This document shows, piece after piece, positions 6,733 to 64,000 of a stretch of 64,000 nucleotides of DNA. The translations under genes were made by a program, and so were the position numbers. Under the pieces are notes generated by a model that did not search any database, was not told where the DNA came from, and saw only the letters and a list, made by a program, of their open reading frames with translations. The stretch's first letter is position 1, and each line of letters starts with the position of its first letter. Origin of the DNA: an uncultured Candidatus Saccharibacteria bacterium (GTDB lineage Bacteria > Patescibacteriota > Minisyncoccia > Phycocordibacterales > UBA6899); the NCBI GenBank assembly GCA_964469335.1, contig CAYXYK010000004.1, forward strand, positions 101,362 to 165,361, written 5' to 3'.

Positions 6733-7066
6733 ATCCCACCTTGTCGCACCGCTTTTCTTGATAGAGAAGGGAGAATGTCGCGTACTATATTGTGCACATC
6801 TTGACCCTTCGGAGCGCGAGCGTACACTCATGACACTACTTGTCGCATACGCGAGAGATCGATGGCGATCTCTGGAAGTGAGGTGTGATCCCTCCACTGT
6901 GCCGCAACGGTAAAGCTGTCACTCGAAAGAGGAGAGAGATGAGTCCGGTCAGCAAGTAGGTATTTCTTCCGAGCAGAAGCGCACTCATCATCTTGGGTGA
7001 CAAAAGGGAAAACAACCCGTGCTTCCAACTCAGAAGGGCGGTTTTCTTTTATTTACATAATCGACT

Positions 7067-27750: not shown

Positions 27751-28194
27751 ATGGCAGATACAACTCCGACAGCACCCGTATATCGATTCCGTTATGCGAC
27801 GCTGATTATTGCGATCGTGATTTTCGGGCAGTTACAGTTGCCACACGTTTCCTTTTCGCAGATGGCAAGTTCCGCATATCAGAATCTTGCGAACGTCTCC
27901 TCGATCAATGCAGCGGTTCCACCGAACGAATACAATACGCTTGCGCAGCAATTTTCTGAAAAAGACCGTGAACTCACCGCTCGAGAGCAGGAGCTGATTG
28001 CACGAGAAAAGGCGCTCGATGCGAAGTATCAGGAAGAGATCGCGAGCACCAAACGTACGACACTGCTGACCATTCTTGGTGCGACAGTCATACTGATACT
28101 TCTGATTTTGGCGAATTTCTATTTTGATATCAAGCGGGAAGAGGAACGTGAGCGGGTGCTCAGGGCCGAACGAGGCGAATCTTCTCCCCTATGA
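27751..28194 (+). CDS. hypothetical bitopic coiled-coil membrane protein
   Basis: The protein has an N-terminal TM, a Glu/Arg-rich coiled coil, a second TM and a basic/acidic tail. Its stop overlaps the next start (ATGA). Confidence 0.45.
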   Translation: MADTTPTAPVYRFRYATLIIAIVIFGQLQLPHVSFSQMASSAYQNLANVSSINAAVPPNEYNTLAQQFSEKDRELTAREQELIAREKALDAKYQEEIASTKRTTLLTILGATVILILLILANFYFDIKREEERERVLRAERGESSPL

Positions 28195-29190: not shown

Positions 29191-30903
29191 ATGAGGTCTT
29201 CGCGTATGTTCACACGTATACTTTTGTTTTTCGTCGTGGCACTCACCGGGACACTCTTCCTCCCGGATGCGGTCGTTGCTGGTCCGACATATTTCACTAG
29301 TGATTTGATCACCGACTCGACACCTGCGGGCACGTCGACAACGCATACGGTGACGTTCAATCCGGGTCTCGCGATACCGACTGCTGGAAAGATCATGATC
29401 ATTCCTGAGCCGAACGGCGGAGGGGTATTCACTGTTCCTCCCGCACTCAACCTTGCTGATATCACACTTGAAGTATCCGCAGGAGGAGGACCGTTCGTCG
29501 CGCGTCCGCTTGCGCTTCTTCCTTCGGGTGTCAGCGACGGGGTGACAGTCACCACAGGTGTGAACGGTTTCATCACCTTCGACCTCGCGACCGGTGTTCC
29601 TGGGATCGCCGCGGGCGACACGGTAAAAGTCACAATAGGCGGAGCGAACTTCATCACTTCGCCAGCGGTGCAAGGTTCCTATCGTATCCGCATCCGTACG
29701 TTTGACGCTGCGAGTCTCCCACTCGATGTCGGAACCGCGATGATCGCCATCGTCGAACGGGTCACCGTCACCGGCGACATCCAGGTCATCGTTCCACTCC
29801 GCTCGAACGGTTTGCCGACGGGCCTCCTGCCTGGTGCGACAACGAATGTCCTAGTTTCCTTGAACACTGACATTCCTGCATTCTGTAAATATGCGACGAC
29901 TTCAGGAGTCGATTTCTTCGCGATGTCGTCGACGACGATATTCCTCGACGCGAATGCGGGGCTCCTCCATTACATCAATGTGCCGGTGTTCGAGAACGAT
30001 ATCTTCACATACTACCTTCGCTGCGTGAGCTCGAATGGTAATCCGAATCCCGATGACTACGTGATCACATTCGAGATCGGTGTCATACCGAACGCATCGA
30101 CAACGCCCCTCCCTCCGCCTCCGCCCCCGACTCCCTCAGGTCCGTCGGGTGGTGGCGGGGGAGGAGGGCTGTTCCTCAAGGGCGGAGATGTCACTATTTC
30201 TGGTACAGGAATTCCGGGCGGCGCACTGACCATTCTCAAGGACGGTAAGATCGCAAAGGAAGATCAGGTCTCCGTTACCGGCTCGTTCACGAACGCATTC
30301 ACTCAGCTCGACCGCGGTACGTATACGTGGGGAGTCTACGTGAAAGACCCTGACGGTAATCTCTCCTCGACCTACAATTCCACGATCTATCTCATCGGCG
30401 GTACCAACAATATCATCGCACCGGTTTACCTCTCTCCGACCATCAAGGCTGCCACTACGACGGTGCCTATCGGGGGATCGCTCCTGATTTCCGGCTACGG
30501 TATCCCGCTTACCACGGTGCAGGCGATCATGAACAAGCAGGGAGATGTGCTGAACTCGAAGATCATCACCGGGACGACCACATCGAACGGGAACGGTTCA
30601 TGGAAGATGGTGCTTTCGACCGAAGGACTAAAGAAGGGAACCTATGAAGTGAAGGCACAGTCGCTTGTGACGACCAGGGACCAGAGCGTCTTTTCCCCGA
30701 CCCTCTACATCGGCGTAGGCGAGAACCCCAATCCGAATTTCAAGAATCGCGCAGATCTCAACAAGGACGGCAAGGTCAACTTGGTCGACTTCTCTATCTT
30801 GCTTTTCAATTGGAAGACGAGTGATGCGGTCGCTGATATCAATCAGGATGGGACGGTGTCGCTGATCGACTTTTCGATCATGCTCGCCAACTGGACCGGC
30901 TAG
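29191..30903 (+). CDS. secreted multi-domain protein with C-terminal type-I-like dockerin
   Basis: The protein has a signal peptide, beta domains, a Pro-rich then Gly-rich linker (PPPPPPTPSGPSGGGGGGG) and Ig-like modules. It ends with the two-segment dockerin DLNKDGKVNLVDFSILLFNW ... DINQDGTVSLIDFSIMLANW. Confidence 0.75.
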   Translation: MRSSRMFTRILLFFVVALTGTLFLPDAVVAGPTYFTSDLITDSTPAGTSTTHTVTFNPGLAIPTAGKIMIIPEPNGGGVFTVPPALNLADITLEVSAGGGPFVARPLALLPSGVSDGVTVTTGVNGFITFDLATGVPGIAAGDTVKVTIGGANFITSPAVQGSYRIRIRTFDAASLPLDVGTAMIAIVERVTVTGDIQVIVPLRSNGLPTGLLPGATTNVLVSLNTDIPAFCKYATTSGVDFFAMSSTTIFLDANAGLLHYINVPVFENDIFTYYLRCVSSNGNPNPDDYVITFEIGVIPNASTTPLPPPPPPTPSGPSGGGGGGGLFLKGGDVTISGTGIPGGALTILKDGKIAKEDQVSVTGSFTNAFTQLDRGTYTWGVYVKDPDGNLSSTYNSTIYLIGGTNNIIAPVYLSPTIKAATTTVPIGGSLLISGYGIPLTTVQAIMNKQGDVLNSKIITGTTTSNGNGSWKMVLSTEGLKKGTYEVKAQSLVTTRDQSVFSPTLYIGVGENPNPNFKNRADLNKDGKVNLVDFSILLFNWKTSDAVADINQDGTVSLIDFSIMLANWTG

Positions 30904-31746: not shown

Positions 31747-33261
31747 GTGAGTCCGTGCGCGCGCGACCATAGTATGCTGAAATCCTTCACGAGAATAGAT
31801 TTGCCCAAGTTCCTTCTCGGAGCGGTTTCGATTTTTTTCATACCGACTTTTGCGCTCACACAGACAGGAGCATCACTTTCTATCTCTCCGGACAGCGGGA
31901 CGTTCGCGGCGGGGAAGACATTCACCGTCAATATCGTCATCGATTCTGCTGATGGGTTCAATACCGGCAACGCGACGCTCAACTACGACCCTGCGGTACT
32001 CTCTGCGACCGGCGTCTCGAAAGGTAGTTCCGCTTTCTCCCTCTGGGCGGTCGAGCCTTCATTCGACAACAGTAAAGGTACGGTCAGTTTCGAAGGTGGG
32101 AATACCTCACCTCTCACCGGCAAGAAGACCATCCTTTCCGTCAGCTTCAGGGGCCTCACTGAAGGAAAGACTGACCTTTCGTTCTCGGCAGGTTCCGTGC
32201 TTGCGGCGGATGGAAAGGGTACCGATATTCTCGGTGCAAAGAACGGTGCCTCTTTCACGATAGGAGCAAAAGAGCTTGCAGTTGAGCCGCCTCCCGCACC
32301 TCCTGCAGCGCCGACAGACACTGGTGGAGGAGGGGGCGTGAAGCCCGACGCTCCTATCGTTTCTTCTCCGACACACTCCGACGAGAGTCTGTACTACAAT
32401 GCGAAGAAAGCAAAGTTCACTTGGGATCTTCCTCCGGATGTCACGGTCGTGCGACTCGCGCTCGACACAAGCGGAAGTACTACTCCAACGACGAACTATG
32501 ATCCCGCGATCAGCGAAAAGGAATTCGATCAACTCACCGACGGAGTGATGTATTTTCATTTGCGATACAAGAACGACGGCGGATGGGGTCCGGTCACACA
32601 CAGGAAGATCATGGTCGATCGTACTCCGCCTCCGGCGTTCGAGGTTGAAGCGACCACGGATGCGTCATCGTCGGATGTCATTCTTAAGTTCTCTGCCACA
32701 GATACTCTTTCGGGTATAGATCATTACGAACTGACCGTAGACGGCGGGACTCCGGTGAAGGCCTCACTTGCCGAACTTCTTTCGGGAGAATACAACTTGA
32801 CCGGTCAAGAATTGGGTGACCACAAACTTAAGGTCGCAGCTTTTGATAAAGCGGGGAATGCGGGTGAAGGAGCAGCAAATTTCAAGATCACCTACGACGC
32901 AGAGGCGGCAAAAAAAGGACTCGACGAGGGAGAGGCGAAGCCCACTGATTGGCGACTGATCATCGATATCGTTCTGGTCGCGTTCATCGCATTCCTGCTC
33001 GGGTATCTGTGGTATGAGCGCGGTGCGTTCCTACATGAGAAATATGTCTCGAAACGCGAAGCGGACGAAGTGCGCGACAATCTTGGCAATATCTTTGCTG
33101 CTCTCCGTGAAGAGGTGGGAGAGCAGGTCACCTATCTTTTCGACAAGCCCAATCCCTCTGCACTCAACAGGGAAGTGCTTGGGAACATCAATGAAGCGAT
33201 TGATCTCTCGGAAGAGCTACTCTCCAAAGAAGTTGAGGACGTTCGTAAGTTACTTTCGTAA
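31747..33261 (+). CDS. membrane-anchored cohesin-domain protein (scaffoldin-like)
   Basis: A signal/TM precedes a cohesin-like domain (LSISPDSGTFAAGKTFTVNIVIDSADGFNTGNATLNYDPAVL ... FSLWAVEP ... GTVSFEGG). A Pro-rich linker, Ig/Fn-like domains, a C-terminal TM (LIIDIVLVAFIAFLLGYLWY) and a cytoplasmic acidic tail follow. Confidence 0.7.
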   Translation: MSPCARDHSMLKSFTRIDLPKFLLGAVSIFFIPTFALTQTGASLSISPDSGTFAAGKTFTVNIVIDSADGFNTGNATLNYDPAVLSATGVSKGSSAFSLWAVEPSFDNSKGTVSFEGGNTSPLTGKKTILSVSFRGLTEGKTDLSFSAGSVLAADGKGTDILGAKNGASFTIGAKELAVEPPPAPPAAPTDTGGGGGVKPDAPIVSSPTHSDESLYYNAKKAKFTWDLPPDVTVVRLALDTSGSTTPTTNYDPAISEKEFDQLTDGVMYFHLRYKNDGGWGPVTHRKIMVDRTPPPAFEVEATTDASSSDVILKFSATDTLSGIDHYELTVDGGTPVKASLAELLSGEYNLTGQELGDHKLKVAAFDKAGNAGEGAANFKITYDAEAAKKGLDEGEAKPTDWRLIIDIVLVAFIAFLLGYLWYERGAFLHEKYVSKREADEVRDNLGNIFAALREEVGEQVTYLFDKPNPSALNREVLGNINEAIDLSEELLSKEVEDVRKLLS

Positions 33262-33367: not shown

Positions 33368-33645
33368 AACTTGAATAAGTATTTAAAATTTTCCAATCAA
33401 AATTTGAGGGAAAAATCAATAATTTTTTGCACATTTTTTCTGAAAAAACGCTTAGATGGTAAGAATTTTTTCAAAGTGCAGTGAGATGCAAAAAAATCTG
33501 TGGACAACTCGTGTTGCTTCCACGAAAGCCCTCAGTTGAGCCATGGTTTAAGAGCGATTTTAGCCCTATTTGAAGCCGTATTTTGGCTTTTTTCTGGTAA
33601 AATTAAGCCTAGCCAATCCTTTTTGGAGGAGGGGTGTGTATTTTC

Positions 33646-51600: not shown

Positions 51601-52308
51601 GTGATGGCAACTGCCACGGTCACAGACCTCAATGGGTATTCAGACATAGTCGCAGCATCGTCGACGTATTATCGCTCTTCGGTCGCTGGTGGCCGCAATT
51701 GTAGTGCTGATAGTAATAACTGCTATCAGATGGCGACATCATCGTGTGCACTTTCGAATTGTGCGGGTAACTCTTGCACGATCTCATGTGCTGCGCCGAT
51801 GTACTACTTTGCTGATCCGACCGATGTGGGTAGTACTTTCGCAGCAGATGTATGGAGTGCGATCGTCGATATCTGGGACACTGCCAATGCGCATTCGAAC
51901 AGTAGCTCGAATCAAGAGCTCTACACGCTCAAGGCACTCACTTCTTCGAGTACCATTAATTACGGTTCGATCACGGTTGGTGCTGATACTGGTGCGTCTG
52001 ATGCGACAACTACGGTCAGTAATACCGGGAATACGGTACTCAATTTGCTCCTTTCGGGATCGAATATGACTGCTGGATCGAGCACTATCTCGGTCGACAA
52101 ACAGAAGTATGCGACCTCCACCTTTGTCTATAGTTCTTGTACGCTCTGTAATTCGCTTGCGACATCGTCGAACCCGTTCAATATCGGCATCGTGAAACCT
52201 ACCACCACCACGACTCCGTTCTCAGGCAATCTCTATTGGGGTCTCGCAGTTCCGAACGGCACTGCGGCGACGACACACTCAGGCGTGAATACCTTCCTCG
52301 CCAATTAA
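33646..52308 (+). CDS. giant (~6220 aa) secreted multi-domain surface protein/adhesin
   Basis: The ATG at 33646 has GGAGGAGGGG 11 nt upstream. The protein has a signal peptide. Domains seen: tail-collar-like HxH (~38.16-39.1 kb), two Fn3-like modules (39.67-40.05 and 40.48-40.85 kb), a W-rich propeller-like region, three ~2.4-kb tandem beta-helix-type repeat units (42.5-49.9 kb), a Cys-rich domain (~51.5-51.9 kb) and a WxL-like C-terminus (YWGLAVPNG). The reading frame is unbroken. Confidence 0.85.
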   Translation: MYRRLRTYARRVIHAFSTRTRVASTLLFLVLSGWLVSQFVLAQKELNVYIFPSAVTSDGWNDDIQSLSQDLSPDATLANFTTLNSASVSFGSLGAAPVATSSVPGVPTPSESDLSTSLENVLPTTPSVVPTALPLNGNDEPILVPAVGEATTSSVISLPNPFVPVTPLPESITASSAQSLNLLPDILTDLFGVKKVLAQEHASATPNVSVSETTTPVVMNQEGNASATLPTVPEPYVPTPMSADPYSVASCTTLGLTCHLMTFVGFGLGDAFSSHPLTSATLELSVAGRSELSALQHDRLLVRVFHAGRWEFLGETEIKGELSNAKRGGYLSYDLPEIADWKDLSDMKVVVEYAREGEGNASLLIDGVWVNAKYGTDSISADATPEEIALSQSNVRSTLFAKDAEDRKVRRDILDTPEGREIALMHADEHDDADIIIKTDKEIYRTLGNTSAYFNVTNQSDKEQVVRLQFHFPEGGGGVASLSRLSRSVPYKVSNLKYDSVGYFCASGWQSASSTDTKGFTCVDMNETRSCDALNDDKTNCIVSGARVGLTEDIEYRDGWVPSALLQGSFRDDAGIFAKAIDLILGKLPSGAIPPSEQPVSYIENSVLLLPGQTAYLRADLALPLNGRGDFYIEGATESGAYGLVHAAWDGSWNYRVPVDIDNEKVETEDSYAVPVSLDSLPLAFWDRVNADGSDVRFVDETGTQELPYWLSSWKYEDRKAFAWVRIPKTSNSTTTRIYVYYGDHSAASRSSLTAPFRTDRLTSRAVIAGSSQHDMTLLAIALDEDTHIQAGEHEPVTLKKGETALFGSLAPGDVVQADGPISLSLESSGSGATVVPYGYTGGNFVIPGIGGERILSMTAVEDGEVHTELKRGSATSTTLDPIAGTIVSDTVDLDSSIRVDAASDVMALLSAGDGTRLTPLYPSTDEPLYGFMLGKTVVGFGTDGSTMKAVCAGGAVKSADGRRDGMMTVLDHCQSSVLPSLADAVRISELANPASVLSLGGEMFTSFIPKSEFASSYVLAEDAGTLAFICAPEDGTIDIGVFDAGGAFTASTTCEARGARPGKALIESANGFHAGSIVRSLDATSTVFMAAYQALGRSLASGEVAPLTTLYGAPQLRSHSPNHPRVTTGEEEFVIPGEHRKLDLDEEGKERVHVDKLLTTKREFSVHEQPGFQFQYTPQSNSVVQGVRGAFGVAQFSVTKVSLRHAQIGELEVEYDIGYGDDNIWSLSLKNVDGHLRPGKYTLHVEIEEGGSTYVDEYDFYWGVLAINYNKSMFTPGETANISIGALSDNGNTICDAILKLWVTPPGGTEIELPVSASGLCDGNNVVDVPDYSSSYSFSSENATGTYKVKLVRFDREGNIASQVTDTISVKDSVPLSIEREGPTRIYPVAHYPMKIRVTANEDFKGNIIERLPGDFVVIDRGSAELAWGDSEHSYMTATWPVDMKKGAVVTFAYEFDAPDRSPYLYELGPASTDGDVVFSEARKWQIASDAAGKMMIYWDRTYTPSGWTCISCLPSDVFYNRFAMGSSTYGGFGGTATHTPTASAAVASFGGTGVGPNTTNNTNNAPLGHTHTLTPQISGVSNLPTYRQLAVLQSNSAGDPASIPGGAIVMFDIASSSLPSGWYRYTPLDGRYVRGQSTSTTGVTGGANTHSHTATGTLSVAIGSGLREQNGVVNGATDVNHTHTLSATNTDVLSNEPPYVEVLFAQQPATSTPVNYMLTMWENTPPSGWTTLSDPGGPLEGKFLKASTTYGLTGGSATHAHADIFGATTSVQSLLNNYTANVSNAQAPAAHTHTVDITGFSTDDHRPPYVEVIFAKRLSGVTLWTQQQYRWYSNTNAITPVDPWPPTGGDLGEDSAIDGGSLAVRVGDVLRLRMSILAMNSTSTVGSQAFKLQYADSLDCPSALNWDDVAPMSSTTAEWRGYNNGAVADRATLPSTLLTLSNIAESYTEENNSTSTSVEIGVGQAGEWDWVLQSNVPLPGTNYCFRMVKSDGTPLDTNDIYPEALTNFAPNATVLASPFDNEKISSTTPYLVFASADPEVNDLDYEVQVSATSDFASSIVDVDSTVNPELFDNVPNPTNKAPFSSGDQIRYRVSPALTNGNTYWWRVRAKDLSGSNAWSSWSAGRSFTVDTAVTISTWFQTTRDQFETDGQTNVDATSTVANDVMLIAGQTSGVLYSPQIDLDQATLGTAWGTLSWNDSEVVGDIKYHVQYLDATSTWVDIPDSGLSGNSAGFDTSPISLLSVDPNTYTSIRLAANFTSVGGSPRLFDWTLSWGYKVTTPVISTPFDNAKVSTTTPSFDFVSTDPNGDPLTYEISWSTDTAFSASTTRTSDFNLGFQNLTTPSDTDPYTSGENIRFTVRASDALTNGTTYYYRVRAKDPTGGNDWSFWSDTRSLTVDTSITVATWFQSMTGQFNTDTLTSMYNYGLGSSTVSTSTTEAMIAYGEGTVQTPRYRIWGGTAWGSEFSALSINSSVQWVVLKASPVIGEYMMGTLGSDRDINFQIYNNGTWGNMNEITTNAPPVTRRSLDIAYETISGRALAVACDGDADPSYAIWDGTNWGSTQTIDLASANNCEWIRLASNPVTNEIILLERNTGNLYQAAVWNATSSTWGTTTNMGSMSEIAHEGMALEYEESGDTALAITSNTTNSSFVYKAYKAGAWSASTTVTLGDDFEWGTLVRDRGTDRMALCYVDEDGDIGMKRWDGGGWVATTTVVELETAPTLTENEGRPVDCAFENTTGRDTYIMTSYSDLVGTRYQTWNNTAWGPEASIMPVIRNFTTQLRRTDDNKILGVWFDYLNGDYYTSSWNGTTWSATTTIETSASVTATPYGEPFMIAPKLPATRGTIVSSPIDYDDGASPAWDQVLWSKTTPGLSTFKVQVEYYDSASSSWKLIPDTDLSGNSSGTSTSPISIRNLDTSTYNQIRLVGNATCVLGNCPVLNDWTVKWSAGLNISGTAKQQDLTTNVTSGTVAVAVNGVLQAGKTGTISAGTWTIPNVTFFPGSTLTVFVSGAATSARAVAVAVYDGPGDFGGMSLNEHWLTVGSASGTLATTTLTNLSKYDNSVAGGTDVFYDVTAGGDYNHCAIAVPAGCYDSSLYLLAENIFSPSTSTAKTLTTYNMRIAGSMYLDANTLKVGASWRNLGGFTPNTGTVMFNATTSTRTIDNTGAATSTFGNVTFGEVATLATWTFSTPFVATGTVAMNFGTTSPGAQSMTLLGDLTIGASGIFAKGSATTTFSGTQSKTWTDNTAAKQDLGNVAISGTAKTVTLASSVKATNINIVAGNTLNAGGANTFSVLGFWDNAGTLTPQTGTVAFIATSSSKTINQASSNFYNATFNGVGGAWRWLNTNATTTNDLTIATGTLTLPGGTLEVGGSFANTGGTFVNNSGITKLTSTAGGKTIQTGTSTFNDLVFSGSGGAWSFVDVNATTSGTLTILAGTPTFPSGVLEVGNNFINSGGTFVANGGTLKLTSSLNSRTITFGGSSPANLTVQNAGVFTVTDTNATTTGNVNFVAGTTTLPAANFVIGGSFTNTGRFTAGTNLVTFNAASGAKTINPGASSFASVLFSGAGTFTVSANATTTNDLTIFSVGGFTQSSGTTLAVGGQFTNQVGGATTTWSGSTLALNSGTAYSINTKTTGGDLYGTLRLAANTQIRSWNSSSTVYVLGTSASLYSQNHNSVSGEVDIFGTYTRTSGSDYWSYATDFDGTVLGSPRQANVRFDSGATASFAAGTTLEILGSATASTSIDRKSSGNYGVTLSSSTINAQYYQFRNMNASGLTLNSSTTVTSLANGDFTIDLNGASGMTVASSTIDTNPGLQLFNVRFATSTGISAGFNVAETGAATSFWRFKNHYGNYAGEAYDSDPGPSSGNPGYVRWDDSNFVISISGTVYSDAGSTPMGAPTCDGVTNTVRVKVSGQGNYAAPCANGSGVYTVSGVTFTGDNVMTVYLDTNGGAQAVAVTKSASADLTGIDLYQHRVILRHEDTFPMSIADMKAYDKTGDTDIPFIAATSSVPYTLTTDPDTQLWVWNSKTFIPGGNITLNSGGSGQTYDGSLILSANSVFTAQGTETHSIGGGFSANAGAVFTAANSTFNFTATTTGKSIIGVAPLTFWRMSFSGSGGGWVINQALTVGENFLPNAGTVSGTSNVTVSGTTVSGAGSIAMTGGTFTLSNGGTFGGNSDWSFNNLTFGNGTLATTTKTGSSTVTVASVLTDAANQTFQAGTSTTWVLTGGGTPLVLSGTFSVQNATFRYAGTSATNVTPATYAQLDFGASGVSSPVYTLLSGTFNVGGAWNVGVVATNTVTVNANTNDPTLTLSGNVNVVASSTFVLSNTGSLTARRNWTNLGTTTASGGTVTFDATTTGFTISAGASPFANVSFNNSNGGWTVVGNATATGNFTLSALASFTLSPNATLEVDGVFTNGIGGGATTWTNSTLYLNANAAETINTKTTGADTYGTLLTGGTTQVRVWNSSAATTTTNNSSSVYSMNHANVSGALNIWGTYNHSSGTDYWDYATDFDGVSIASTSRVVNVRVASSSSLNFSGGQLEVLGASGATTTIDVLTTGGYSWNITGGVVNMQYYKIRGIDQNGLSISGSPTVSGLSNGDFLLAVNGATMMTIAGGTIDANPLKTFFGMSFATSSGITSGYNITATGVSGSVWTISGLSGNYAGEARDNDPGGDPGYIRWDDSAAQISVSGNVYSDEGLTPIGGPVCDGVTQNVRLKVQGAGSYTSACNAGTGAFSISNIIYNPKDTLTLYLASTTGVRAVNIAYDPATNITSMNLYQNRIILRHEQGSAVGIAQMAAYDNNKDSAIPFIATTTVATSTTVFAGTGLIVWNSKVFAPGGNVTLHANASGNSWDGSVHLLATSTWSSSGTESYTIGGSFAADTSASVAPANSTFNFTATTTGKSVSASNTLTFYNLTFSGAGGAWSIPGVSTTSNDLTISGGTLTLPTGTLFVGGSWNNSGGAFVASGGTVEFIATASGKNIRTGTSAFWNTTFSGTGGAWTYLDTNSTTSGTTTVTAGTLTLPSGVYAEGKSFDVRSGSVSANGGTLKMISTSTGQTVRLSGSSLANLLVAATGTFQFLDSYATTTGDVSLTFGTTTFPYAALTIGGSFSNSAVFSAGTSTLVMNGSVAGKTISLGNSSPYNMTINGASGGFTVSGNATTSNNFSLIAASTYTQSSGTTLAVGGVFTNSVGGAPTTWSGTTLSLYGTSSNYSINSKSAGGDAYNIIRLAANTNIRMWNSSVSTTQLDPASSIYSQNNAASAGSLYIYGNYTRSSGTDYWSYATDFDGTALGGSSRQANVRFDANATATFQNGATLSMQGSATASTSVDRISSGSYGITLDSSWWTAQYYQFRNMNSTGLNLTGTTTISMNNGDFSLDVNGGRSITVSSTTIDQNASQQFFYVKFATSSGITSGYNVLRTGTTTNSFTFNSEYGNFAGEAFDNDGADGCGSIRWSDSACLISDQRGYRWRNDDGAEGAPSSEWYNQSWTKRERIRIVNNATTSYTNEQVKLDIPYDSDMKSNFDDIRFTDSSGTTSIPFWTESYLTSATATVWVKVPSLPGSGTADIFMYFGNSGASYAGSGTSTFTFFDDFEDGNLSEYTGNTTLFSNDATFNYERTYGLAASAGNTGAQNTSGIGQASAGVGRDTTFRFNQYIDMTSGGSDEPCFLFAIQPPITGHQNYGVCLSPFGADHLVVAKNVSWNGRAASDGSTLLVSKAVTYTTGWYQVSVDWIATNNQINVNVYDNTGSLFATATTTDSTWTSGGVGFTFWGMHGGWDIPFARTYNYLTPSYALFTKQADSGATWAAAENTYLPNYVQNQNVRLRFSVRNSSLAPLSENFRLQYAAKLASPNCESVPTGNYSDVPTTSGGCGSAAACMTSSSQFTKSSSTQLLTFPNGYTFTQAQILEDPNNQTDNISLLANAFTEVEYNIQMTNNSSLDRYCFRTTNAGTPLDNYTRVAEIQVLHPPTLSNFSFNQNSDIALTEGTTTSVMATATVTDLNGYSDIVAASSTYYRSSVAGGRNCSADSNNCYQMATSSCALSNCAGNSCTISCAAPMYYFADPTDVGSTFAADVWSAIVDIWDTANAHSNSSSNQELYTLKALTSSSTINYGSITVGADTGASDATTTVSNTGNTVLNLLLSGSNMTAGSSTISVDKQKYATSTFVYSSCTLCNSLATSSNPFNIGIVKPTTTTTPFSGNLYWGLAVPNGTAATTHSGVNTFLAN
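42490..49935 (+). repeat. three tandem ~2.3-2.7-kb intragenic repeat units
   Basis: Unit boundaries are marked by NYAGEAYDSDPG.PGYVRWDD (45190), NYAGEARDNDPGGDPGYIRWDD (47621) and NFAGEAFDNDGADGCGSIRWSD (49935). The units contain internal GGAW../TLTLP.G.LEVGGSF.N.GG.FV beta-helix-like sub-repeats. Confidence 0.7.
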
Positions 52309-54893: not shown

Positions 54894-54961
54894 GACATCA
54901 TAGTAGCAGGGGATAATGCACTCATCCACTCGAAACAGTGGAGGAATCCTATTTTGCTCTA

Positions 54962-54967
54962 TATAAT
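54962..54967 (+). promoter_or_regulatory. -10 element TATAAT(AGAG) 10 nt upstream of ABC ATPase start
   Basis: The sequence is ctcTATATAATAGAGcaagctATG. Together with the divergent response regulator gene it sits in a 60-bp divergent promoter region. Confidence 0.45.
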
Positions 54968-54977
54968 AGAGCAAGCT

Positions 54978-56306
54978 ATGGCGAAACCGATCATTTTTGG
55001 GGACCGAATAGAGATCACCTATAATCTTGGCAAGGAAAATGAGTTCCGTGCAAACAAAGGTGCTACCGTCGAGATATTCGACCAAGAGTACATCATTCTG
55101 TTTGGTCCGTCCGGTTGCGGGAAATCGACCCTCCTTTACTGTATGTTCGGTGTGCTTGAACCTTCGGCGGGGAAGATGTATGTGAACGGTGAGTCGATCT
55201 ATGATTTCGAGCCGATGCAGATGGTGAACTTCCAGCGCAAAACGATGGGGATCATGTATCAGTCGTTCAACCTCATTCCATCGATCACTGTTCTGGATAA
55301 TGTCGCGCTCCCGCTCATCTTCGACGGGATCGGTCCGCGTGAACGCAACGATCGCGCGATGGAACTCTGTCGCCGTTTCATGATCGACCATGTTGCGAAC
55401 AAACGTCCGACCCTTCTTTCCGGTGGTCAACAGCAGCGTGTGTCTGTCGCGCGCTCGTTGGTGAATGACCCACAGATCCTCATCGCAGACGAACCGGTCG
55501 GTAACCTCGACTCTATTACCGCCGCACAGGTTATGGATACGCTCGCTGAGATTAACGATAAGGACAAGAAGACCGTCATTCTCGTTACTCACGATGCTAA
55601 GTACTTACCGTATGCGCACCGCATCGTCTATATGGCCGACGGAAAGATTGAGCGCATCGTTCCCAATCCCGAGAAGAAGCAGATCCTGAAGCTTGCGCCA
55701 GGCACCACCATCGTCACCGAGATCGAGCAGATCGCCCGCATCTACCCGTATGACTCGCCGAATGAACTGCAGGTGAAGAGTGTGGTGAATTATCTCATCG
55801 AAGAACTCACATTCGATCAGATTACCAGACTGCAGAAGACCACCGAATCGGTCATCTCCGGACGGATGGAGATATCTAACTACCTCCGTACTTTGATGGA
55901 TGACTACGAGAAGGGAGGTGTTGGGCTACCCGTCGCACGCGCGACAGAGATGAGTCAAAAGCTCTCCGACATCCTCATTCACGCCCGTGACATCCAGCGC
56001 TACCGCCGCGTCAGGAATAATCAGGTCACCCAGATCCGCAGCACTGAGTTCATCAACCGCATTGCCGAGTTTCTTGCTACGCAGGTGGATCTCAAACTCG
56101 ATGCTGCACAGAAAGAGCATTTCGAGACCGCGATCGCGCAACGCATCGGCGGCTTCGTCCGTAAAGATGAGTTCGGCGAGCAACTCGGACTTTCGCTTGC
56201 CGACGGTGGAGTTGCTCTCAACAAGAAACAGACATTCGATACAGTGAGACTCATCGAGAAATTGATCGCGCTCGGTATTCCGCGCACCGGCGAAGCACAT
56301 CATTGA
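54978..56306 (+). CDS. ABC transporter ATP-binding protein (MacB/LolD/FtsE-type) with ~220-aa C-terminal extension
   Basis: The protein has Walker A (GPSGCGKST), the LSGGQQQRV signature and Walker B (ILIADEPVGNLD). A long helical C-terminal extension has no obvious family. Confidence 0.8.
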   Translation: MAKPIIFGDRIEITYNLGKENEFRANKGATVEIFDQEYIILFGPSGCGKSTLLYCMFGVLEPSAGKMYVNGESIYDFEPMQMVNFQRKTMGIMYQSFNLIPSITVLDNVALPLIFDGIGPRERNDRAMELCRRFMIDHVANKRPTLLSGGQQQRVSVARSLVNDPQILIADEPVGNLDSITAAQVMDTLAEINDKDKKTVILVTHDAKYLPYAHRIVYMADGKIERIVPNPEKKQILKLAPGTTIVTEIEQIARIYPYDSPNELQVKSVVNYLIEELTFDQITRLQKTTESVISGRMEISNYLRTLMDDYEKGGVGLPVARATEMSQKLSDILIHARDIQRYRRVRNNQVTQIRSTEFINRIAEFLATQVDLKLDAAQKEHFETAIAQRIGGFVRKDEFGEQLGLSLADGGVALNKKQTFDTVRLIEKLIALGIPRTGEAHH

Positions 56307-57449: not shown

Positions 57450-58658
57450 ATGCAGCTCCGTGATATCGCCATGCTCTCGACTCGCGCGTTCAAGACGAAT
57501 CCTGCGCGTACTTGGCTCACCATCGCCGGCATGGGCGTCGGAACGGGTGCCGTTGTTACGCTCGTTGGACTCGGCTTTGGGCTCCAGAATATCATCCTCG
57601 AGCAGATCGTCTTCGGCGAGACGTTGCTATCACTCACGGTCAACAACCCACCCTCGAAGATCGTGCAGATAAACACTCAGACCGTGAAAGACTTCGCCGC
57701 GCTGCCGAATGTCAAAGACGTCTCGCCGCTCGCAAGCTTTCCTGCACTCATCACCCTCGATGGACTCACAGGAAACACCTTCCTTCAAGGGGCCGAGCCC
57801 GCGTATTTCCGCTACACAGGAGCGAATGCTGCTGCAGGTGAGCTGTTCAAAGATGGCGAAGAGGCGAAGAACAGAGGAGGAGTGATACTCACCAAGGCAA
57901 TACTCAAACTTTTTGCCATCAAAGAGCCCAAAGAAGCACTTGGAAAGACCGCGACATTTCGAGTACTCGTCTCAAAGGAGGGTTCCGATGAGTCTGAGGA
58001 AATCGCAATCGATAAGTCCTACAAGGTCGTCGGAGTCACCAACGAAGAGAACTTCATTGCCGCGATCATTCCTCTTGATGAATTGCAGAGTCATGTTGAG
58101 GTGACGAATTATGACAAGATACAGGTCCGCGTCACCAAGAGTGAGGCGCTCGACGCGACACAGGCATCCATCGTGAAAAAAGGATACGTGGTGACCGCAC
58201 TCTCGAAGACCGTTGAACAGGCGAATAAAATCTTCCAAGGTATCCAGGCGGTCCTTGCAGTCTTCGGTGGTATCGCGCTCACGGTGTCTGCGATCGGTAT
58301 GTTCAATACCATGACCGTCACACTGCTTGAGCGTACCGCCGAGATCGGTATCATGCGCACGCTTGGCGCCTCTTCAGGTGACATCCAGATCCTCTTCGTC
58401 GCGGAAGCCGTCATCGTGGGATTTCTCGGGGGAGTGATGGGGATACTTTTCGGACTCACGATAGGTTTCTCGCTCAATACCGTGATGAATGCCACTGCAT
58501 CGCACTTCGGCGGTAAATCCGTCTCATTGTTCTCATTTCCGATCCCGTTCCTCCTCTTCATCGCTATCTTCTCAGCTATCGTCGGGTTCATGACTGGAGT
58601 GTTCCCTGCACGCCGCGCCGCTTCACTCAATCCGCTCGACGCGATTCGTTACAAATAA
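57450..58658 (+). CDS. ABC transporter permease, FtsX/MacB-like
   Basis: The protein has an N-terminal TM, a large extracytoplasmic domain and a C-terminal three-TM FtsX core (GIMRTLGASSGDIQILFVAEAVIVGFLGG). TATAATAGA lies 9 nt upstream of the ATG. Confidence 0.8.
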   Translation: MQLRDIAMLSTRAFKTNPARTWLTIAGMGVGTGAVVTLVGLGFGLQNIILEQIVFGETLLSLTVNNPPSKIVQINTQTVKDFAALPNVKDVSPLASFPALITLDGLTGNTFLQGAEPAYFRYTGANAAAGELFKDGEEAKNRGGVILTKAILKLFAIKEPKEALGKTATFRVLVSKEGSDESEEIAIDKSYKVVGVTNEENFIAAIIPLDELQSHVEVTNYDKIQVRVTKSEALDATQASIVKKGYVVTALSKTVEQANKIFQGIQAVLAVFGGIALTVSAIGMFNTMTVTLLERTAEIGIMRTLGASSGDIQILFVAEAVIVGFLGGVMGILFGLTIGFSLNTVMNATASHFGGKSVSLFSFPIPFLLFIAIFSAIVGFMTGVFPARRAASLNPLDAIRYK

Positions 58659-58854
58659 GCTGCTGAAGATCCTGAATATTCGTACCGGCACCTTTGCACT
58701 GAGAGTCTCACTGCAACTCGCATGATACCCATTCACTCAAGAGGGGCGAGCATCGGGGCATATTTTTAAGATATTGTGGATAAATAGTAGGAAAACTGTG
58801 TATAACTATTGCGCTTTCGGTGGATAAGGCGTGTATAATGTATCTACGTTCGCA

Positions 58855-60727
58855 TATGATGTTCCGAGAAAACCACAGCACGACAGGCGGGAAGGTGAGT
58901 ATTCTCACTGCTATTTTAGCGGTGCTCATTTTGCTCATCGGTGTGATGGGAGAGCTCCCACATGGTAAGGTCGCCCGCGCATCGACAGCGACCACCTCGG
59001 TCACGGTGCTCAATACTCCTCCGCAGTGGGACACCAACGTCTACGTTCAGGAGGCAAACCCCGTCGGGACCACTTCATCAGCAACAAGCACTTCACCGAC
59101 CAACGCGGGGAATACGCTGACTTGGTACGCAACCTCTACTGACTCATCCGGTGACAACTACTATATCCTTCTTTGCGATAACTTCGCGTCGCCGACCCCG
59201 AACTCAAGTGCACCACCCACCTGCGGTGCAGGCTCAGGGCACCAGATCGCTGTGTCAGCTGCTACGCAGAGTGGAACAGCCGCTACACTTTCAACGACAA
59301 CGGTATCTTGGATGCCCGAAGTCTACACCTACTACGCATATCTCTGTGACGGGAATGCGACAGGTCCTTCATGTAATCCGCAGGCATTCTCACCTTCGAG
59401 TAACCCGTTTCCTACCGTTGCGACTTCAAGCCCGAATCTCTCGCCGTTCATCGTCAATCATCGACCGACATTCACGGCGTACCTCAATACCTCACCCATC
59501 AATCCGGGTGGTACGGTAAGTTGGTATGCGACTGCGACCGATGCGGATACGTACGCATATGGAGCATATTCTTCAGATCGCGTGATGCTGTTTATCTGTA
59601 AACTCGCAGACTTCACCGGTACGGCCTGTGGAGGCGGGGGGACTTGGGCGACCTCAACTTTCGTGACCAACTTCGCCACTGGCACTCTCACCATTGGCAC
59701 TCCGTACCCGAAGGGTTCGTTTCCTGCCTACGGTTATGTCATCGACTATCATGGAGGTTTCGCCGCATCAGGTGGTCAACAGGGCGTCAGTGCACCGCTT
59801 GTCGTGAACAATGTCGCTCCTTCTATTGCTGCAGCATCGATCAGTCTGTTCAGTGCGACAGGTACGTCACCGCTTGTTCTGACCAATCTTGCGACACAGA
59901 CCCAAAACTTCTCTGTACAGTTCACTGTCACCGACCAGAATAGCTGCATGACATCGGTCGGTGGACCTGAGATCACCAATTCAATCATCAATGTCTATCG
60001 TTCCGGTGTAGCGTCAACGTCATGCTTCACTGGCTCACACTACAATGCGAATAATTGCTACACGGCAGCTACAGGTACGAGAGCGTGGAATTACTCGTGC
60101 TCTCCGGGGTCATGTACAGGCACATCTTCCGCGACCCAAGTGTGGACATGTTCATTCCCGCTCTGGTTCATCGCTGATGCGACTGATGCAGGATCACAGT
60201 TCCCGACAAACAATTGGCTTGCGACAGCTTCCTCATCTGACAGTTCCTTCGCTTCATCTTCGTTAGTCGAGTCGTCAGTAGGTACAGAGTTGCTGCAGTT
60301 CCTGGGATACGACATCTCAAGCACGACCATTGCTTATGGTGGCTTGCAGCCAGGTAACTCAGCCGACCTCCTCGCCTCCACAAGTGTCGCACTGCTTGCA
60401 CAAGGGAATGTCGGTCTCGATGAGAGTCTGTTCGGTGATGATATGTGTCCGACATATCCGACATGTACCGGTAATGCCACCTCGACGATCTTCGTAGCGA
60501 ACCAGAAGTATTACCATGCTCCCATTTCATATGCTTTAGCGACGTCTACTCTCTCAGGCGTTCCGACGACATACGGTGTTCGAGTGCCGAAAACCGTTGC
60601 AACGACTTCGATTCAGTCAAAAACCACCTACTGGGGTATCCAGGTTCCTGGAACGATCACTCTCTCCGGTAGTTATATCGGAAGGAACACGATACTCGGT
60701 GTCACCTCACTAGCTTCGTCCTGGTAA
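58855..60727 (+). CDS. secreted Cys-rich surface protein, paralog of the C-terminal region of the 6224-aa protein (WxL-like end)
   Basis: The ATG at 58855 lies 15 nt after TATAAT; the ORF-track start at 58820 is GTG. The protein has a TM/signal, a Cys-rich domain collinear with giant-protein residues ~5980-6130 and a C-terminus YWGIQVPG ... LASSW. Confidence 0.6.
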
Positions 60728-60878: not shown

Positions 60879-61922
60879 ATGAAGAAGGGGATACTTTTTG
60901 TCTTAGGAACGCTCCTCGTTTGGGGAGGTTTAACGAATGTTGCATTCGCAGGCTTTGGTATTACCCCTCCATATGTACGCAACGAGACACTTAGACAAGG
61001 TTCAGAATATACACAGGAGATCATCATAGTTCGAAGTGACCCAGTGGAGGACCTTAACGCCGAGCTGACCTATTCTCTCCCCGGCTATGAGTCGTGGTTC
61101 TCATCGGATCGCGGCACGAAGTTCATTCTTCCAAAAGGTGAATCACAAGTGAAATTGCACATCACCGTGCGCGTCCCTGACGACGCGAAACTTGGTGCAT
61201 ACAACGGCAACATCCGTATCCGCACATATTCATCGGAAAACGCCTCGAGCGGAGTCTCACTCGCACTGGGAGCACAGATCGATGTACACCTCAAGGTCGT
61301 CGATGAGGTGTTCGATTTCCAGGTTCGTCGCGTCGAACTTGCCGAAGCCGAAGAAGGCTACAAGAAATGGTGGCTGTCATTCCCGGGCAAAGTGAAATTC
61401 GCCATCTATCTCGAGAATACTGGCAATGTGCCCGCGGCCCCGTACAAAGTGGTGCTCTCTGTCTATGATGTGACCGGCACACAACTACTCGAGACGACGG
61501 AGAATACCAATCGGATCGACACGATACTCCCGTTCGATACGAAAAAAGTATACGCATACATCCCAACATGGCTTCCCCCCGGTAGCTATTCTGTGAAGTA
61601 CGATATCAAGAAGACCGAGACCGAGTCCGCACAGACCGGGCAACTTTCGCTTTCCGTCCTTCCGCGCGGAACGATCACTGGCTACGAGCAATATGGGTTC
61701 GAAGGATTGAAGCTCGCTGATCAACTCTCGCTTATAATTCCCGTTGCGATCCTTCTCCTTTCGGTGGTGACCGTCATCATCGTGAAGAAATCGAAACGAA
61801 AGAAGCGATCACGGCGCACTGATAGCGAAGACGAGCCACCGCGAAGACAAAGCAGGGAAGTGTCCCCACCCCCGCGACGAGCGGTCTCAAGCGGTGTCGT
61901 CGATCTTTCTCGTAAACGCTAA
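60879..61922 (+). CDS. CscA-like (DUF916/DUF3324-like) cell-surface protein paralog
   Basis: The protein has a signal peptide, two beta domains, a C-terminal TM (LSLIIPVAILLLSVVTVIIV) and a KKSKRKKRSRR tail. An extended -10 TGtTACAAT lies upstream. Confidence 0.55.
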   Translation: MKKGILFVLGTLLVWGGLTNVAFAGFGITPPYVRNETLRQGSEYTQEIIIVRSDPVEDLNAELTYSLPGYESWFSSDRGTKFILPKGESQVKLHITVRVPDDAKLGAYNGNIRIRTYSSENASSGVSLALGAQIDVHLKVVDEVFDFQVRRVELAEAEEGYKKWWLSFPGKVKFAIYLENTGNVPAAPYKVVLSVYDVTGTQLLETTENTNRIDTILPFDTKKVYAYIPTWLPPGSYSVKYDIKKTETESAQTGQLSLSVLPRGTITGYEQYGFEGLKLADQLSLIIPVAILLLSVVTVIIVKKSKRKKRSRRTDSEDEPPRRQSREVSPPPRRAVSSGVVDLSRKR

Positions 61923-63124
61923 TGACGATGAAGTACACCCCCGCGTGCCGAAGAAGCAACGAAAAAACACGCGCGCGAGGCAAGACATTCCTTGCGTTGT
62001 GCGTGTTTTTGATAGGTCTTGCGCCATCGAGTGCTTTTGCGGCATATGTGACAACTACTCTCTCGATCTCCATCTGCTACAACGGAATCATCGATGCAGG
62101 TGAGGTCTGTGACGATGGGCTTTTCAATAATGGAGCATATGGGTCTACCTCAGCAGAGAGACATTGCAATGCGGTCTGCTCCGGTTATGGTCCATACTGC
62201 GGGGATGGAGTATTGCAAGCTCTCTATAGCGAGGCATGCGATGATGGTGCTGCCAATGGTACGGTCGGGGACCTCTGTTCTATCTCGTGTGTGCAACTTT
62301 CTCCACCCATCTCGACGACGACACCCCCTGCTCCACCCCCACCCCCACCCGCTTCGTCTGGCGGAGGCGGAGGTGGCGGAGCATTCTCAGGAACGATCCC
62401 TGTTCGCACTCAGACCCGCGTTGTTCTTCAGGGGAAAGCATATCCAGGAAGTACGGTGAATATTTTGAAGGATGGACAGGTCGTCGGTGTTGCGCAGTCT
62501 GATAATAGTGCGGATTTCAGTTACGAGATGTCGAGTGTCACTCCCGGGCCAACCACATTCGGTTTTTGGTCGACTGATGGAAAAGGAGTGCGTTCGATCA
62601 CATTCACGACAACGTTCCAGGTAACCCAGAATGCGGTCACCACCGTTTCCAATGTGTTCTTGCCTCCCACTCTCGACCTCAAACAGAAGAAAGCAAATCT
62701 CGGCGACGTCATAGACTCACTCGGTTCAACAGCACCCAACGCACTTGTCACACTGTTCGTGGACAAAGAGACCACCGCAAGAGCAAGGGCAACTTCGACA
62801 GGTGCGGGCGCATGGACAGCTGCGCTCCCGACGGACATCCTTAGCAATGAATCGTTCCATGCAGTGAAGGCGATGTTCGAACTTTCCGGAGGAGGTGCGC
62901 AAGCCAAAAGCGGTTACTCTCAAGCGGTGAATTTCTACATCGGTGCGAAAGATGTTCGAACTCCATCGAATGGTGATATTAACGGTGACGGGAAGGTCAA
63001 CCTCGTCGATTTCTCGATCCTGCTTTTCCATTGGGGGACATCGGATGCGATTGCAGACCTAAACGGTGACGGGAAGGTGAATCTCACTGACTTCTCGATT
63101 TTGCTTTTCAATTGGACAGGTTAA
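61922..63124 (+). CDS. secreted protein with Myxococcus-type Cys-rich repeats, Pro/Gly linker, Ig-like domains and C-terminal dockerin
   Basis: The start overlaps the upstream stop (TAATG). The protein has C..G..D.GE.CDDG ... NG repeats, PPAPPPPPPASSGGGGGGG, and the dockerin DINGDGKVNLVDFSILLFHW ... DLNGDGKVNLTDFSILLFNW. Confidence 0.7.
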   Translation: MTMKYTPACRRSNEKTRARGKTFLALCVFLIGLAPSSAFAAYVTTTLSISICYNGIIDAGEVCDDGLFNNGAYGSTSAERHCNAVCSGYGPYCGDGVLQALYSEACDDGAANGTVGDLCSISCVQLSPPISTTTPPAPPPPPPASSGGGGGGGAFSGTIPVRTQTRVVLQGKAYPGSTVNILKDGQVVGVAQSDNSADFSYEMSSVTPGPTTFGFWSTDGKGVRSITFTTTFQVTQNAVTTVSNVFLPPTLDLKQKKANLGDVIDSLGSTAPNALVTLFVDKETTARARATSTGAGAWTAALPTDILSNESFHAVKAMFELSGGGAQAKSGYSQAVNFYIGAKDVRTPSNGDINGDGKVNLVDFSILLFHWGTSDAIADLNGDGKVNLTDFSILLFNWTG

Positions 63125-63168
63125 CATGTGCCGCATTCGCCTAGAAGCGTGATGCACAAAGTGTTACT

Positions 63169-64000
63169 ATGAAAACAACGACAATGAACCTTTTTAAAGA
63201 AAACCTTTCGAAAAAAATCGGGAATAACGCAATAGGGACTCTCATGTATTCCGTGTTCTTCACCTGCGTATTACTTTCTCCTGCGGGGTTCGTGTCTGCC
63301 GCCACACTCTCGATTGATCCTTCTCATGGAAGTTTTGGACCTGGAGATATGTTCGTGATGACGGTGCGCATCGATACCGCTACTGACGAATGTATCAATG
63401 CAGCAGATATCGAGGTCGTGTTCCCGAACGATCTCGTGAAAGTGACTGCGGTCTCAAAAGGCGAGTCACTTATGACGCTTTGGACTGACGGACCACTGAT
63501 AGAGAATGAGAAAGGGAGAGTCACATGGAGTGGCGGTATCCCGGGCGGATACTGCGGAAGAGTGCTTGGAGATCCCGGAAAGACGAATATCCTTGGAAAG
63601 GTCGTGTTCAATGTGCTCCCAGTGAAGGCAGACAGCGTTGAACTCGCGATGCGTTTTACGTTCGGTTCATCGACGAAAGTCCTTCTCAATGACGGGTTCG
63701 GAAGTGCAGCGCCTCTGTCACTCCGTAGTGCCGATCTAACTCGCGTGCTTCGCTCGAGTGGTGTAAAAAACGAATGGGTTGATATCGTCCGCGCTGACAC
63801 CACCCCACCGGATCAATTCGATGTTTCCATTCACCATGACAAAAGTACGCTTGATGGGAAATATTTCATAATTTTCTCGACGGTAGACAAGCAGAGTGGA
63901 GTCGATCACTTCGAGGTCATGGAGGATGATCCTGCTCGGATTGGATACCTAAGGGGGAAGAACGAGAAAGCTCACTTCGCGCCCGCAACAAGTCCGTTCG
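63169..64000 (+). CDS. cohesin-domain protein (5' partial; continues beyond window)
   Basis: An open frame runs from ATG 63169 to the window end. The protein has a signal peptide and a cohesin-like block (LSIDPSHGSFGPGDMFVMTVRIDTATDECINAADIEVVFPNDLVKV ... MTLWTDGP ... GRVTWSGG). It is paralogous to the 31747 gene, including the DHFEV/DHYEL block. Confidence 0.6.
   Translation, partial: MKTTTMNLFKENLSKKIGNNAIGTLMYSVFFTCVLLSPAGFVSAATLSIDPSHGSFGPGDMFVMTVRIDTATDECINAADIEVVFPNDLVKVTAVSKGESLMTLWTDGPLIENEKGRVTWSGGIPGGYCGRVLGDPGKTNILGKVVFNVLPVKADSVELAMRFTFGSSTKVLLNDGFGSAAPLSLRSADLTRVLRSSGVKNEWVDIVRADTTPPDQFDVSIHHDKSTLDGKYFIIFSTVDKQSGVDHFEVMEDDPARIGYLRGKNEKAHFAPATSPF

Follow-up and report, generated by a model that had tools for sequence, protein, structure and literature searches.

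The 64,000-nucleotide stretch of DNA analysed here (the window) comes from a Patescibacteria (candidate phyla radiation, CPR) bacterium near Candidatus Lloydbacteria. At its downstream end lie a gene for a dockerin protein, doc2, and a gene for a protein of cohesin type, coh2. They belong to a cluster with the order ABC (ATP-binding cassette) ATPase, MacB-type permease, p635, p347, doc2, cohesin 2, cohesin 3 and a small protein that carries both cohesin and dockerin. It is probable that this cluster encodes a surface assembly, fixed and non-enzymatic, which would be built through cohesin-dockerin contacts and would serve as an envelope scaffold or as a contact structure, not as a cellulosome. 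The gene content of the cluster, the folds of its domains, its membrane topology as predicted from hydrophobicity and its conservation are shown by the data. The two genes at the window end and their parts are the following (positions are those of the window; aa, amino acids; ORF, open reading frame; Ig, immunoglobulin; AF2, AlphaFold2).

61922..63124, plus strand: doc2, predicted secreted dockerin protein of 400 aa (ORF list; Dockerin_1, TIGR02232 and DUF4215 matches)
61922..62041, plus strand: signal peptide of doc2, aa 1-40, ending in ...SSAFA/AY (from the sequence itself; hydrophobicity analysis gives one segment, aa 21-44)
62075..62290, plus strand: two Cys-rich acidic repeats of doc2, aa 52-123, with the motif CxxG...E.CDDG (TIGR02232, DUF4215, pappalysin-1 match)
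62399..62941, plus strand: doc2 aa ~160-340, a region of Ig-like beta-sandwich type with homology to the matching part of doc1 (Big_6, BLASTP)
62972..63121, plus strand: dockerin module of doc2, aa 351-400 (Dockerin_1, motif scan, PDB dockerin matches)
63169..64000, plus strand: coh2, the first 277 of the 371 codons of a putative membrane-anchored cohesin protein that ends 284 nt past the window (ORF; contig L001)
63301..63768, plus strand: predicted cohesin-fold domain of coh2, aa ~45-200 (AF2 model of a 92% identical orthologue, with Foldseek)
63787..64000, plus strand: first part of the second beta domain of coh2, which is OmpL47/Big_13-like, TPPD...DKQSGVDHFE (NCBIfam barrel_OmpL47 sub-threshold; shared with coh1)

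A dockerin gene at 61922-63124, on the plus strand and 400 aa long, had been reported in a preliminary description of this DNA, and our data bear it out, as aa 351-394 match Pfam Dockerin_1 (PF00404, type I) with 37.1 bits, well over the cut-off of 22.9. The module is composed of two tandem segments of ~22 residues, each with an EF-hand-like calcium loop (D-x-N/D-x-D-G-x5-D) and then a helix. The two loops, of the calcium-binding type, read DINGDGKVNLVD and DLNGDGKVNLTD, and DFSILLF.W comes after each of them. The protein ends in WTG, an ending kept in 74 of 75 orthologues, and a strict pattern detects the two loops in 64/74 of the orthologues. The C-terminal 50 positions of a profile made from 12 orthologues match solved type I dockerins of cellulosomal enzymes (E 2e-4 to 5e-3). 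In a six-frame pattern scan of the window, dockerin loops occur solely in doc2 and at 30754-30870.

The same description had placed Myxococcus-type Cys-rich repeats in the N-terminal part of doc2, and these are indeed present: the repeat exceeds the cut-off of TIGR02232 (myxo_disulf_rpt, 'cysteine-rich acidic repeat'; 22.9 against 20.8 bits) and lies just above that of DUF4215 (27.4 against 27 bits). It shows a conserved C...CGDG...E.CDDGN pattern, the eight Cys of the doc2 repeats are invariant among orthologues, and the 12-orthologue profile of doc2 matches the same repeat in pappalysin-1 (E 1.5e-6). In the Ig-like region, aa 166-231 give a sub-threshold match to Pfam Big_6. According to hydrophobicity analysis the N-terminal signal is the sole hydrophobic segment of doc2, as it is of its relative doc1 at 29191-30903, and both proteins are predicted to be secreted.

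In contigs annotated by the Joint Genome Institute (JGI), doc2 is called as a protein of 222 aa from an internal start (L089 2672-3340, L090 3015-3683). A truncation of the gene there was ruled out, since the DNA is collinear and has the 400-codon frame open over its full length; the discrepancy is one of gene calling. Because the JGI calls start internally, public protein sets hold shortened versions of the doc2 family. A separate observation on doc2 concerns strain variation: when the window is compared with L087/L089, two strains 99.7% identical to it, there are 14 substitutions in 4.4 kb, of which doc2 has 10, at 61927-62998 (6 synonymous, 4 not), and p347 and cohesin 2 have none. These numbers are small, and local recombination could explain the clustering.

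The next ORF, coh2, starts with an ATG at 63169 and stays open to the window end. The close spacing given for it in the preliminary description therefore stands, except that it is 44 nt past doc2 and not 45. An alternative ATG, at 63184, is conserved, and it is with this start that the family as a whole aligns. Extension of the contig, which had been suggested as a check, was possible through a public contig, L001, obtained through an exact-protein look-up, which is 100% identical over 901 aligned bases and reaches 1254 bases past the window end. On L001 coh2 is complete and has 371 aa, with an N-terminal hydrophobic signal, a cohesin-like domain, a second beta domain, a C-terminal helix and a short tail; the helix, a hydrophobic segment at aa 326-348, lies beyond the window. 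The gene is neither truncated nor a pseudogene, since it is intact on L001 and also on three further contigs, from strains 99.5-99.7% identical to the window, that were compared for gene intactness.

The assignment of coh2 to the cohesins comes from homology and from fold. Its sequence is homologous to that of coh1, a Pfam-positive cohesin protein encoded at 31747-33261, both over the cohesin domain (BLASTP E 4e-12) and over the second shared domain (E 2e-6), and the three cohesin families of the cluster cross-match by hidden Markov model (HMM; E 1e-18 to 1e-36). The cohesin domain has two invariant Cys, C75 and C129, and a GGIPGGYCGR motif. A structure model of the family was made on P0001, an orthologue 92% identical to coh2, from an alignment of 42 sequences; the AF2 model (mean pLDDT, the predicted local confidence, 83.6) has two beta domains and a terminal helix. 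In a Foldseek search against PDB its top 50 matches are all cohesin modules, with a target-normalised TM (template modelling) score of up to 0.77, and the best overall match is the cohesin+FN3 pair 2w1n from Clostridium perfringens GH84C (E 7e-11). Thus, judging from this orthologue, coh2 is predicted to be a cohesin-type protein with the nine-stranded jelly-roll beta-sandwich typical of cohesins. Pfam Cohesin is matched by 22/42 members of the family at E<=0.1 (best 2e-6), any other family by 2 members at most. The claim that a cohesin-domain protein runs off the window is in this way confirmed, by the homology to coh1 and the fold of the orthologue, with 277 codons inside the window. The family is large: 594 word-indexed matches were found, nearly all without a Pfam domain or a name, and in a library of 1.84 billion representatives it comprises 7673 clusters at E<=1e-3 and 1519 at E<=1e-30.

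On contigs with homologues of cohesin 2 the same neighbours recur. In a scan of one genome per species, 203 species-level genomes encode a relative. The closest relatives are from Candidatus Lloydbacteria, and the other genomes are labelled Falkowbacteria, Azambacteria, Kaiserbacteria, Adlerbacteria, Nealsonbacteria, Campbellbacteria, Paceibacterota and Patescibacteria. Neighbours were counted at 80 loci with cohesin-2 homologues, which were searched with the window proteins, and only loci with enough flank were taken as informative.

Dockerin gene upstream of cohesin 2: 72/72 informative loci, in 65 within 500 bp
Cohesin-3-type gene downstream of cohesin 2: 73/75 informative loci
p635 upstream of cohesin 2: 54/56 informative loci
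p347 upstream of cohesin 2: 54/56 informative loci
MacB-type permease upstream of cohesin 2: 48/56 informative loci
Small gene of ~227 aa downstream of cohesin 2: 34/53 informative loci

As judged from the first two of these counts, in which the loci come from different species, dockerin-cohesin-cohesin is one ancient, fixed cluster, and the earlier proposal of a modular, expandable system of matched partners does not hold. Moreover, the dockerins of doc1 and doc2 have the same signature, an argument for cohesin partners that are common to both and not matched to each one separately. Among the extracellular parts of the cluster the dockerin module is conserved best: its mean p-distance is 0.35, close to the 0.34 of the MacB permease, whereas it is 0.59-0.69 for the cohesin domains and 0.57-0.69 for the extracellular parts other than dockerin. 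Strong conservation and fixed composition together suggest a core envelope function, not a variable, expandable toolkit. In the searchable literature on dockerin and cohesin in CPR, Patescibacteria, Parcubacteria or DPANN we found no description of this cluster.

The genes of the cluster that precede doc2 in the window are listed below.

54954..56306, plus strand: ATPase of an ABC transporter, with 450 aa in the ORF list and 442 aa in the gene calls of related contigs; C-terminal extension of ~200 aa (ABC_tran, E 5e-30)
57450..58658, plus strand: MacB-type (type VII ABC) permease, 402 aa (MacB_PCD, E 2e-23; FtsX, E 5e-16)
58820..60727, plus strand: p635, putative envelope protein that has a hydrophobic helix at its N-terminus and Ig-like beta-sandwiches arranged in a chain (AF2 model, pLDDT 82.6, all-beta)
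60879..61922, plus strand: p347, with a signal peptide, a beta-rich ectodomain (probably two domains), a C-terminal membrane helix and a basic tail (hydrophobic segments at aa 4-24 and 276-306)

The ABC ATPase is the first gene of the conserved neighbourhood and is found upstream of most MacB-containing loci. The permease combines a MacB periplasmic core with an FtsX domain and has a separate ATPase, which is the architecture of the MacB or type VII transporters, as in MacAB-TolC, LolCDE and FtsEX. The system here differs from these in its cohesin and dockerin envelope neighbours and in NCBIfam scores far below the family cut-offs. The best NCBIfam matches of the ATPase are of the LolD/FtsE/MacB type, all under cut-offs, and neither it nor the permease reaches a named equivalog (MacB, LolC/E, FtsX), the MacB score being, for example, 89 against 966 bits. 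Nor was a membrane-fusion protein of HlyD type seen among the larger ORFs, which were the ones scanned.

The likely true start of p635 is at 58856, which gives a protein of 623 aa. Foldseek returns generic multi-Ig proteins only for its model, and thus no function was deduced from it. Its C-terminal ~230-260 aa recur at the C-terminus of a giant protein of 6224 aa encoded at 33634-52308 (BLASTP E 5e-15), and in many other loci a partial p635-like C-terminus is encoded just upstream of their ABC gene. The C-terminal module that the giant protein has in common with p635 might serve as a tag in assembly or sorting. The stop codon of p347 overlaps the start of doc2 (TAATG). Its profile gave nothing above noise against PDB and Pfam, and no family was assigned to it. 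It is a distant paralogue (22% identity, E 1e-8) of a 352-aa protein encoded at 25467-26525, with which it has in common the layout of signal, beta-rich ectodomain and C-terminal membrane helix. This second protein has a weak match to WxLIP_PGBD, the peptidoglycan-binding domain of WxL-interacting proteins, and its gene lies a few kb upstream of doc1, and p347 directly precedes doc2.

Downstream of the window, coh3 overlaps the end of coh2 on L001, so that what had been taken for a local pair is a dockerin-cohesin-cohesin unit. The coh3 protein passes the Pfam Cohesin cut-off (24.6 against 24.1 bits) and is 30% identical to coh1 over 301 aa. The window merged with L001 makes 65.25 kb and contains just three ORFs with cohesin-like domains; a fourth lies just past it, as seen in a near-identical strain. 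This is the small protein of 227 aa (L002 12755-13435, minus strand; L089 6151-6834, minus strand), here called the adaptor, in which a hydrophobic N-terminus is followed by a cohesin-like domain and, at the C-terminus, by a dockerin with two loops. The dockerin of the adaptor is of a type distinct from that of doc2 and equally conserved (PDVNGDG.LS..D.N.LYLK.F..YD..YDLN.DG). Its gene is usually on the strand opposite to the cluster, and on the same strand in L077 and L084. In addition to an N-terminal signal, coh1, coh2, coh3 and p347 all have a C-terminal hydrophobic helix, and the cohesin proteins and p347 are accordingly predicted to be type I membrane proteins with this helix as the anchor.

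The window contains a second dockerin gene and a further cohesin gene at 29-33 kb.

29191..30903, plus strand: doc1, first dockerin protein, 570 aa (Dockerin_1, 34.3 bits; BLASTP to doc2)
31747..33261, plus strand: coh1, putative membrane-anchored cohesin protein, 504 aa (Pfam Cohesin, E 1e-7, 32.7 bits)

These genes had been described as the same dockerin-then-cohesin pair, with a near-identical dockerin. The dockerin modules of doc1 and doc2 are similar and not near-identical (37/50 aa, or 74%, identical; 69% at the DNA level), and the homology of the two proteins is confined to their C-terminal ~240 aa (34% identity over 243 aa, E 9e-33). Nor is the unit the same, for an Hsp20 gene sits between doc1 and coh1, and coh1 scores 391 bits on the HMM of the cohesin-3 position and 112 bits on that of cohesin 2 (both HMMs were built from the genes at the given cluster position in other genomes). 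By these scores coh1 is best classed as a paralogue of cohesin 3, not of cohesin 2. The 29-33 kb genes look like a lineage-specific, dispersed extra copy consisting of a dockerin tail and a cohesin-3-type gene.

A few observations concern the surroundings of doc1. Its aa 117-211 resemble a protein of 385 aa encoded at 24009-25166 (tblastn E 3e-5), and by eye a similar motif (SDTLSDSAPSVPSNHTISF) is seen in a gene of 408 aa inserted between the dockerin and cohesin genes of L084 (8666-9892); the surface proteins with this segment resembling the N-terminal part of doc1 form an uncharacterised family. Directly upstream of doc1 are two tandem paralogues (26707-27648 and 28191-29114), membrane-anchored and with an FGE-sulfatase (formylglycine-generating enzyme-like) domain. 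Elsewhere in the window, two large adjacent ORFs (601 and 1760 aa) without any Pfam match, followed by three unannotated ORFs of 385-435 aa, occupy 13805-20889. A LexA-like gene (Peptidase_S24; 4839-6116, minus strand) adjoins a gene for a DinB/ImpB-family polymerase (6127-6897, minus strand), a typical SOS pair unrelated to the dockerin-cohesin cluster.

Among the known systems, the type I system of Clostridium (Acetivibrio) thermocellum, with the OlpA and OlpC cohesins and the enzyme dockerins (3ul4, 4dh2), is similar in the cohesin beta-sandwich (Foldseek TM 0.71-0.73), in a dockerin made of two repeats of calcium loop and helix, and in the combination of a cell-bound single-cohesin protein with a secreted dockerin-tagged protein. 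It differs in that the cluster described here has no enzymes, multi-cohesin scaffoldin or carbohydrate-binding module, that its cohesin proteins have a C-terminal membrane helix as predicted anchor instead of SLH domains or sortase, and that it occurs in a CPR host as a fixed cluster beside a MacB-type transporter. In C. perfringens GH84C (2w1n), which belongs to a toxin-complex cohesin-dockerin system, a cohesin is likewise followed directly by an Ig/FN3-type domain, and its use is unrelated to cellulose; there, however, the modules are appendages of large secreted glycoside hydrolases, whereas here they make up small, dedicated proteins that are predicted to be membrane-anchored.

Cohesin and dockerin are carried together by an Archaeoglobus fulgidus protein and by adaptor scaffoldins such as ScaA of Acetivibrio cellulolyticus. 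The 227-aa adaptor resembles them in having both modules in one polypeptide, and it is unlike them in its much smaller size (one cohesin, one dockerin), in a dockerin type distinct from that of doc2 and in its place in a conserved operon.

In Patescibacteria themselves, cohesin and dockerin genes of Ca. Shapirobacterales were found to be expressed and were interpreted as a cellulosome (Bell et al. 2022, PMC9123182), and a cultivated Saccharibacterium was reported to have an essential dockerin-domain protein, for which glycan targeting was proposed (Wang et al. 2023, PMC10633639). Both studies concern dockerin or cohesin domains in this group, and neither describes the doc2-cohesin cluster. We considered whether the Saccharibacterial protein, SEML1_0315 (927 aa), belongs to the same operon, and this was ruled out, as its gene stands alone, with a hydrolase gene on one side and a tRNA on the other.

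From these data we infer cohesin-dockerin binding, the pairing of the partners and a biological role along the following lines. All the envelope proteins of the cluster would be exported through their signal peptides. Cohesin 2 and cohesin 3 would be held in the cytoplasmic membrane by a single C-terminal helix, and each would present one cohesin module on an Ig-like spacer. The C-terminal dockerin of doc2 would bind one of these cohesins in a calcium-dependent manner, as the extra copy, doc1, might also do, and this contact would keep the Cys-rich and Ig-like part of doc2 on the cell surface. The small protein with cohesin and dockerin may be an adaptor that links a further layer. A cohesin-dockerin contact is the most economical reading because the adjacency of the genes is invariable, because a protein in which cohesin and dockerin are fused recurs in the cluster and because the dockerin is strongly conserved. 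The tight packing of the genes (the overlap of p347 with doc2, the 44 nt between doc2 and coh2 and the overlap of coh3 with coh2) is also in favour of it, as is the cohesin+FN3 layout of 2w1n, which mirrors the cohesin+Ig-like layout of coh2. The idea in the preliminary description that adjacent genes encode interaction partners is in this sense retained, with the binding itself as the inferred part. Here cohesin and dockerin modules would be employed apart from enzyme complexes, in an envelope gene cluster that is conserved in Patescibacteria, whereas their contacts are so far known from enzyme complexes. We put forward only tentatively a more far-reaching version, in which the cluster would be a core envelope apparatus of Patescibacteria: stalks of cohesin proteins would fasten an outer layer (doc2, p635 and perhaps the giant protein) forming a coat or a host-contact structure, and the MacB-type transporter would supply the mechanical work for its assembly or release.

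Some of our results weigh against a surface assembly built on cohesin-dockerin contacts. Variation is much greater in the cohesin domains than in the dockerin, and with a tight, conserved interface this would not be expected unless only a small patch counts. In a co-evolution test, in which the distance matrix of the dockerin was compared with that of each cohesin domain and MacB was controlled for, partial r was 0.08-0.13 and no cohesin partner was singled out. The coh2 fragment in the window remains below the Pfam Cohesin (PF00963) cut-off (E 0.058, 14 bits against 24.1; the match spans 119/139 profile positions), and the sequence profile of the coh2 family gave no meaningful match, and no solved cohesin, against PDB sequences, so that a fold search was needed to name it. 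The ABC and MacB genes are separated, in near-identical strains and in closely related ones, by a gene on the opposite strand, and the transporter may therefore not be co-transcribed with the cluster; a promoter and terminator scan of 54-64 kb gave counts equal to the shuffled expectation. The variability of the cohesin domains and the lack of a co-evolution signal are also what could be expected if the dockerin and cohesin-like modules were independent of each other, that is, calcium- or glycan-binding or structural modules, aimed for example at host surfaces, in neighbouring proteins that are simply co-exported to the envelope. The essential stand-alone dockerin protein of the Saccharibacterium, with its proposed glycan targeting (Wang et al. 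2023, PMC10633639), would agree with this explanation. We consider it unlikely, given that the adjacency of dockerin and cohesin genes is without exception in 72/72 loci across very divergent genomes, that the fusion of both modules recurs within the cluster, and that two conserved dockerin types beside three cohesin families are the pattern expected of interacting modules.

That the dockerin and cohesin genes form a minimal cellulosome, assembling polysaccharide-degrading enzymes on the cell, is the interpretation which Bell et al. 2022 (PMC9123182) gave to the expressed genes of Ca. Shapirobacterales, and the nearest solved folds are those of cellulosomal cohesins and dockerins. For the present cluster it is very improbable. 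Neither dockerin protein of the window has a catalytic domain, both being made up only of Cys-rich repeats and Ig-like domains, there are just two dockerins of the doc2 type in 64 kb, and no glycoside hydrolase is found among the cluster genes in the loci whose gene lists were read. Each cohesin protein has one cohesin, there is no multi-cohesin scaffoldin and no match to a carbohydrate-binding module or SLH domain, and a C-terminal membrane helix is found instead; it is on the lack of dockerin-tagged enzymes and of these components that the cellulosome explanation fails. It has also to be considered whether the cluster is primarily a MacB-type machine for ATP-driven extraction, assembly or activation of the downstream envelope proteins, in the way that LolCDE and FtsEX act on their clients, with the cohesin-dockerin contacts as a late assembly step. 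The permease with MacB_PCD and FtsX and its ATPase are indeed upstream in 48/56 loci, the C-terminal module of p635 and the giant protein could be a recognition tag, and a p635-like C-terminus is encoded upstream of the ABC gene in many other loci. However, variable genes, one of them on the opposite strand, separate ABC, MacB and the remaining genes, MacB is missing from 8/56 loci that retain the other genes, and no adaptor or outer partner of the transporter was identified among the scanned ORFs. It is thus quite unlikely that the machine is the primary function, and this explanation is compatible with the surface assembly held by cohesin-dockerin contacts and does not exclude it.

Matches to cohesin and dockerin in CPR genomes should not be taken as evidence of cellulose degradation. 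Naming the cohesin-2 family, which at E<=1e-30 has at least 1519 clusters, almost wholly unannotated, would improve the annotation of many genomes. Little is known of the way in which the ultra-small CPR bacteria build their envelope and attach to their hosts, and annotation is lacking for most proteins of their surface. The cluster described here offers a hypothesis on these processes that can be tested in vitro: the dockerin type of doc1 and doc2, the second type carried by the adaptor and the three families of cohesins are available as soluble modules, and the matrix of binding among them is measurable without cultivation.

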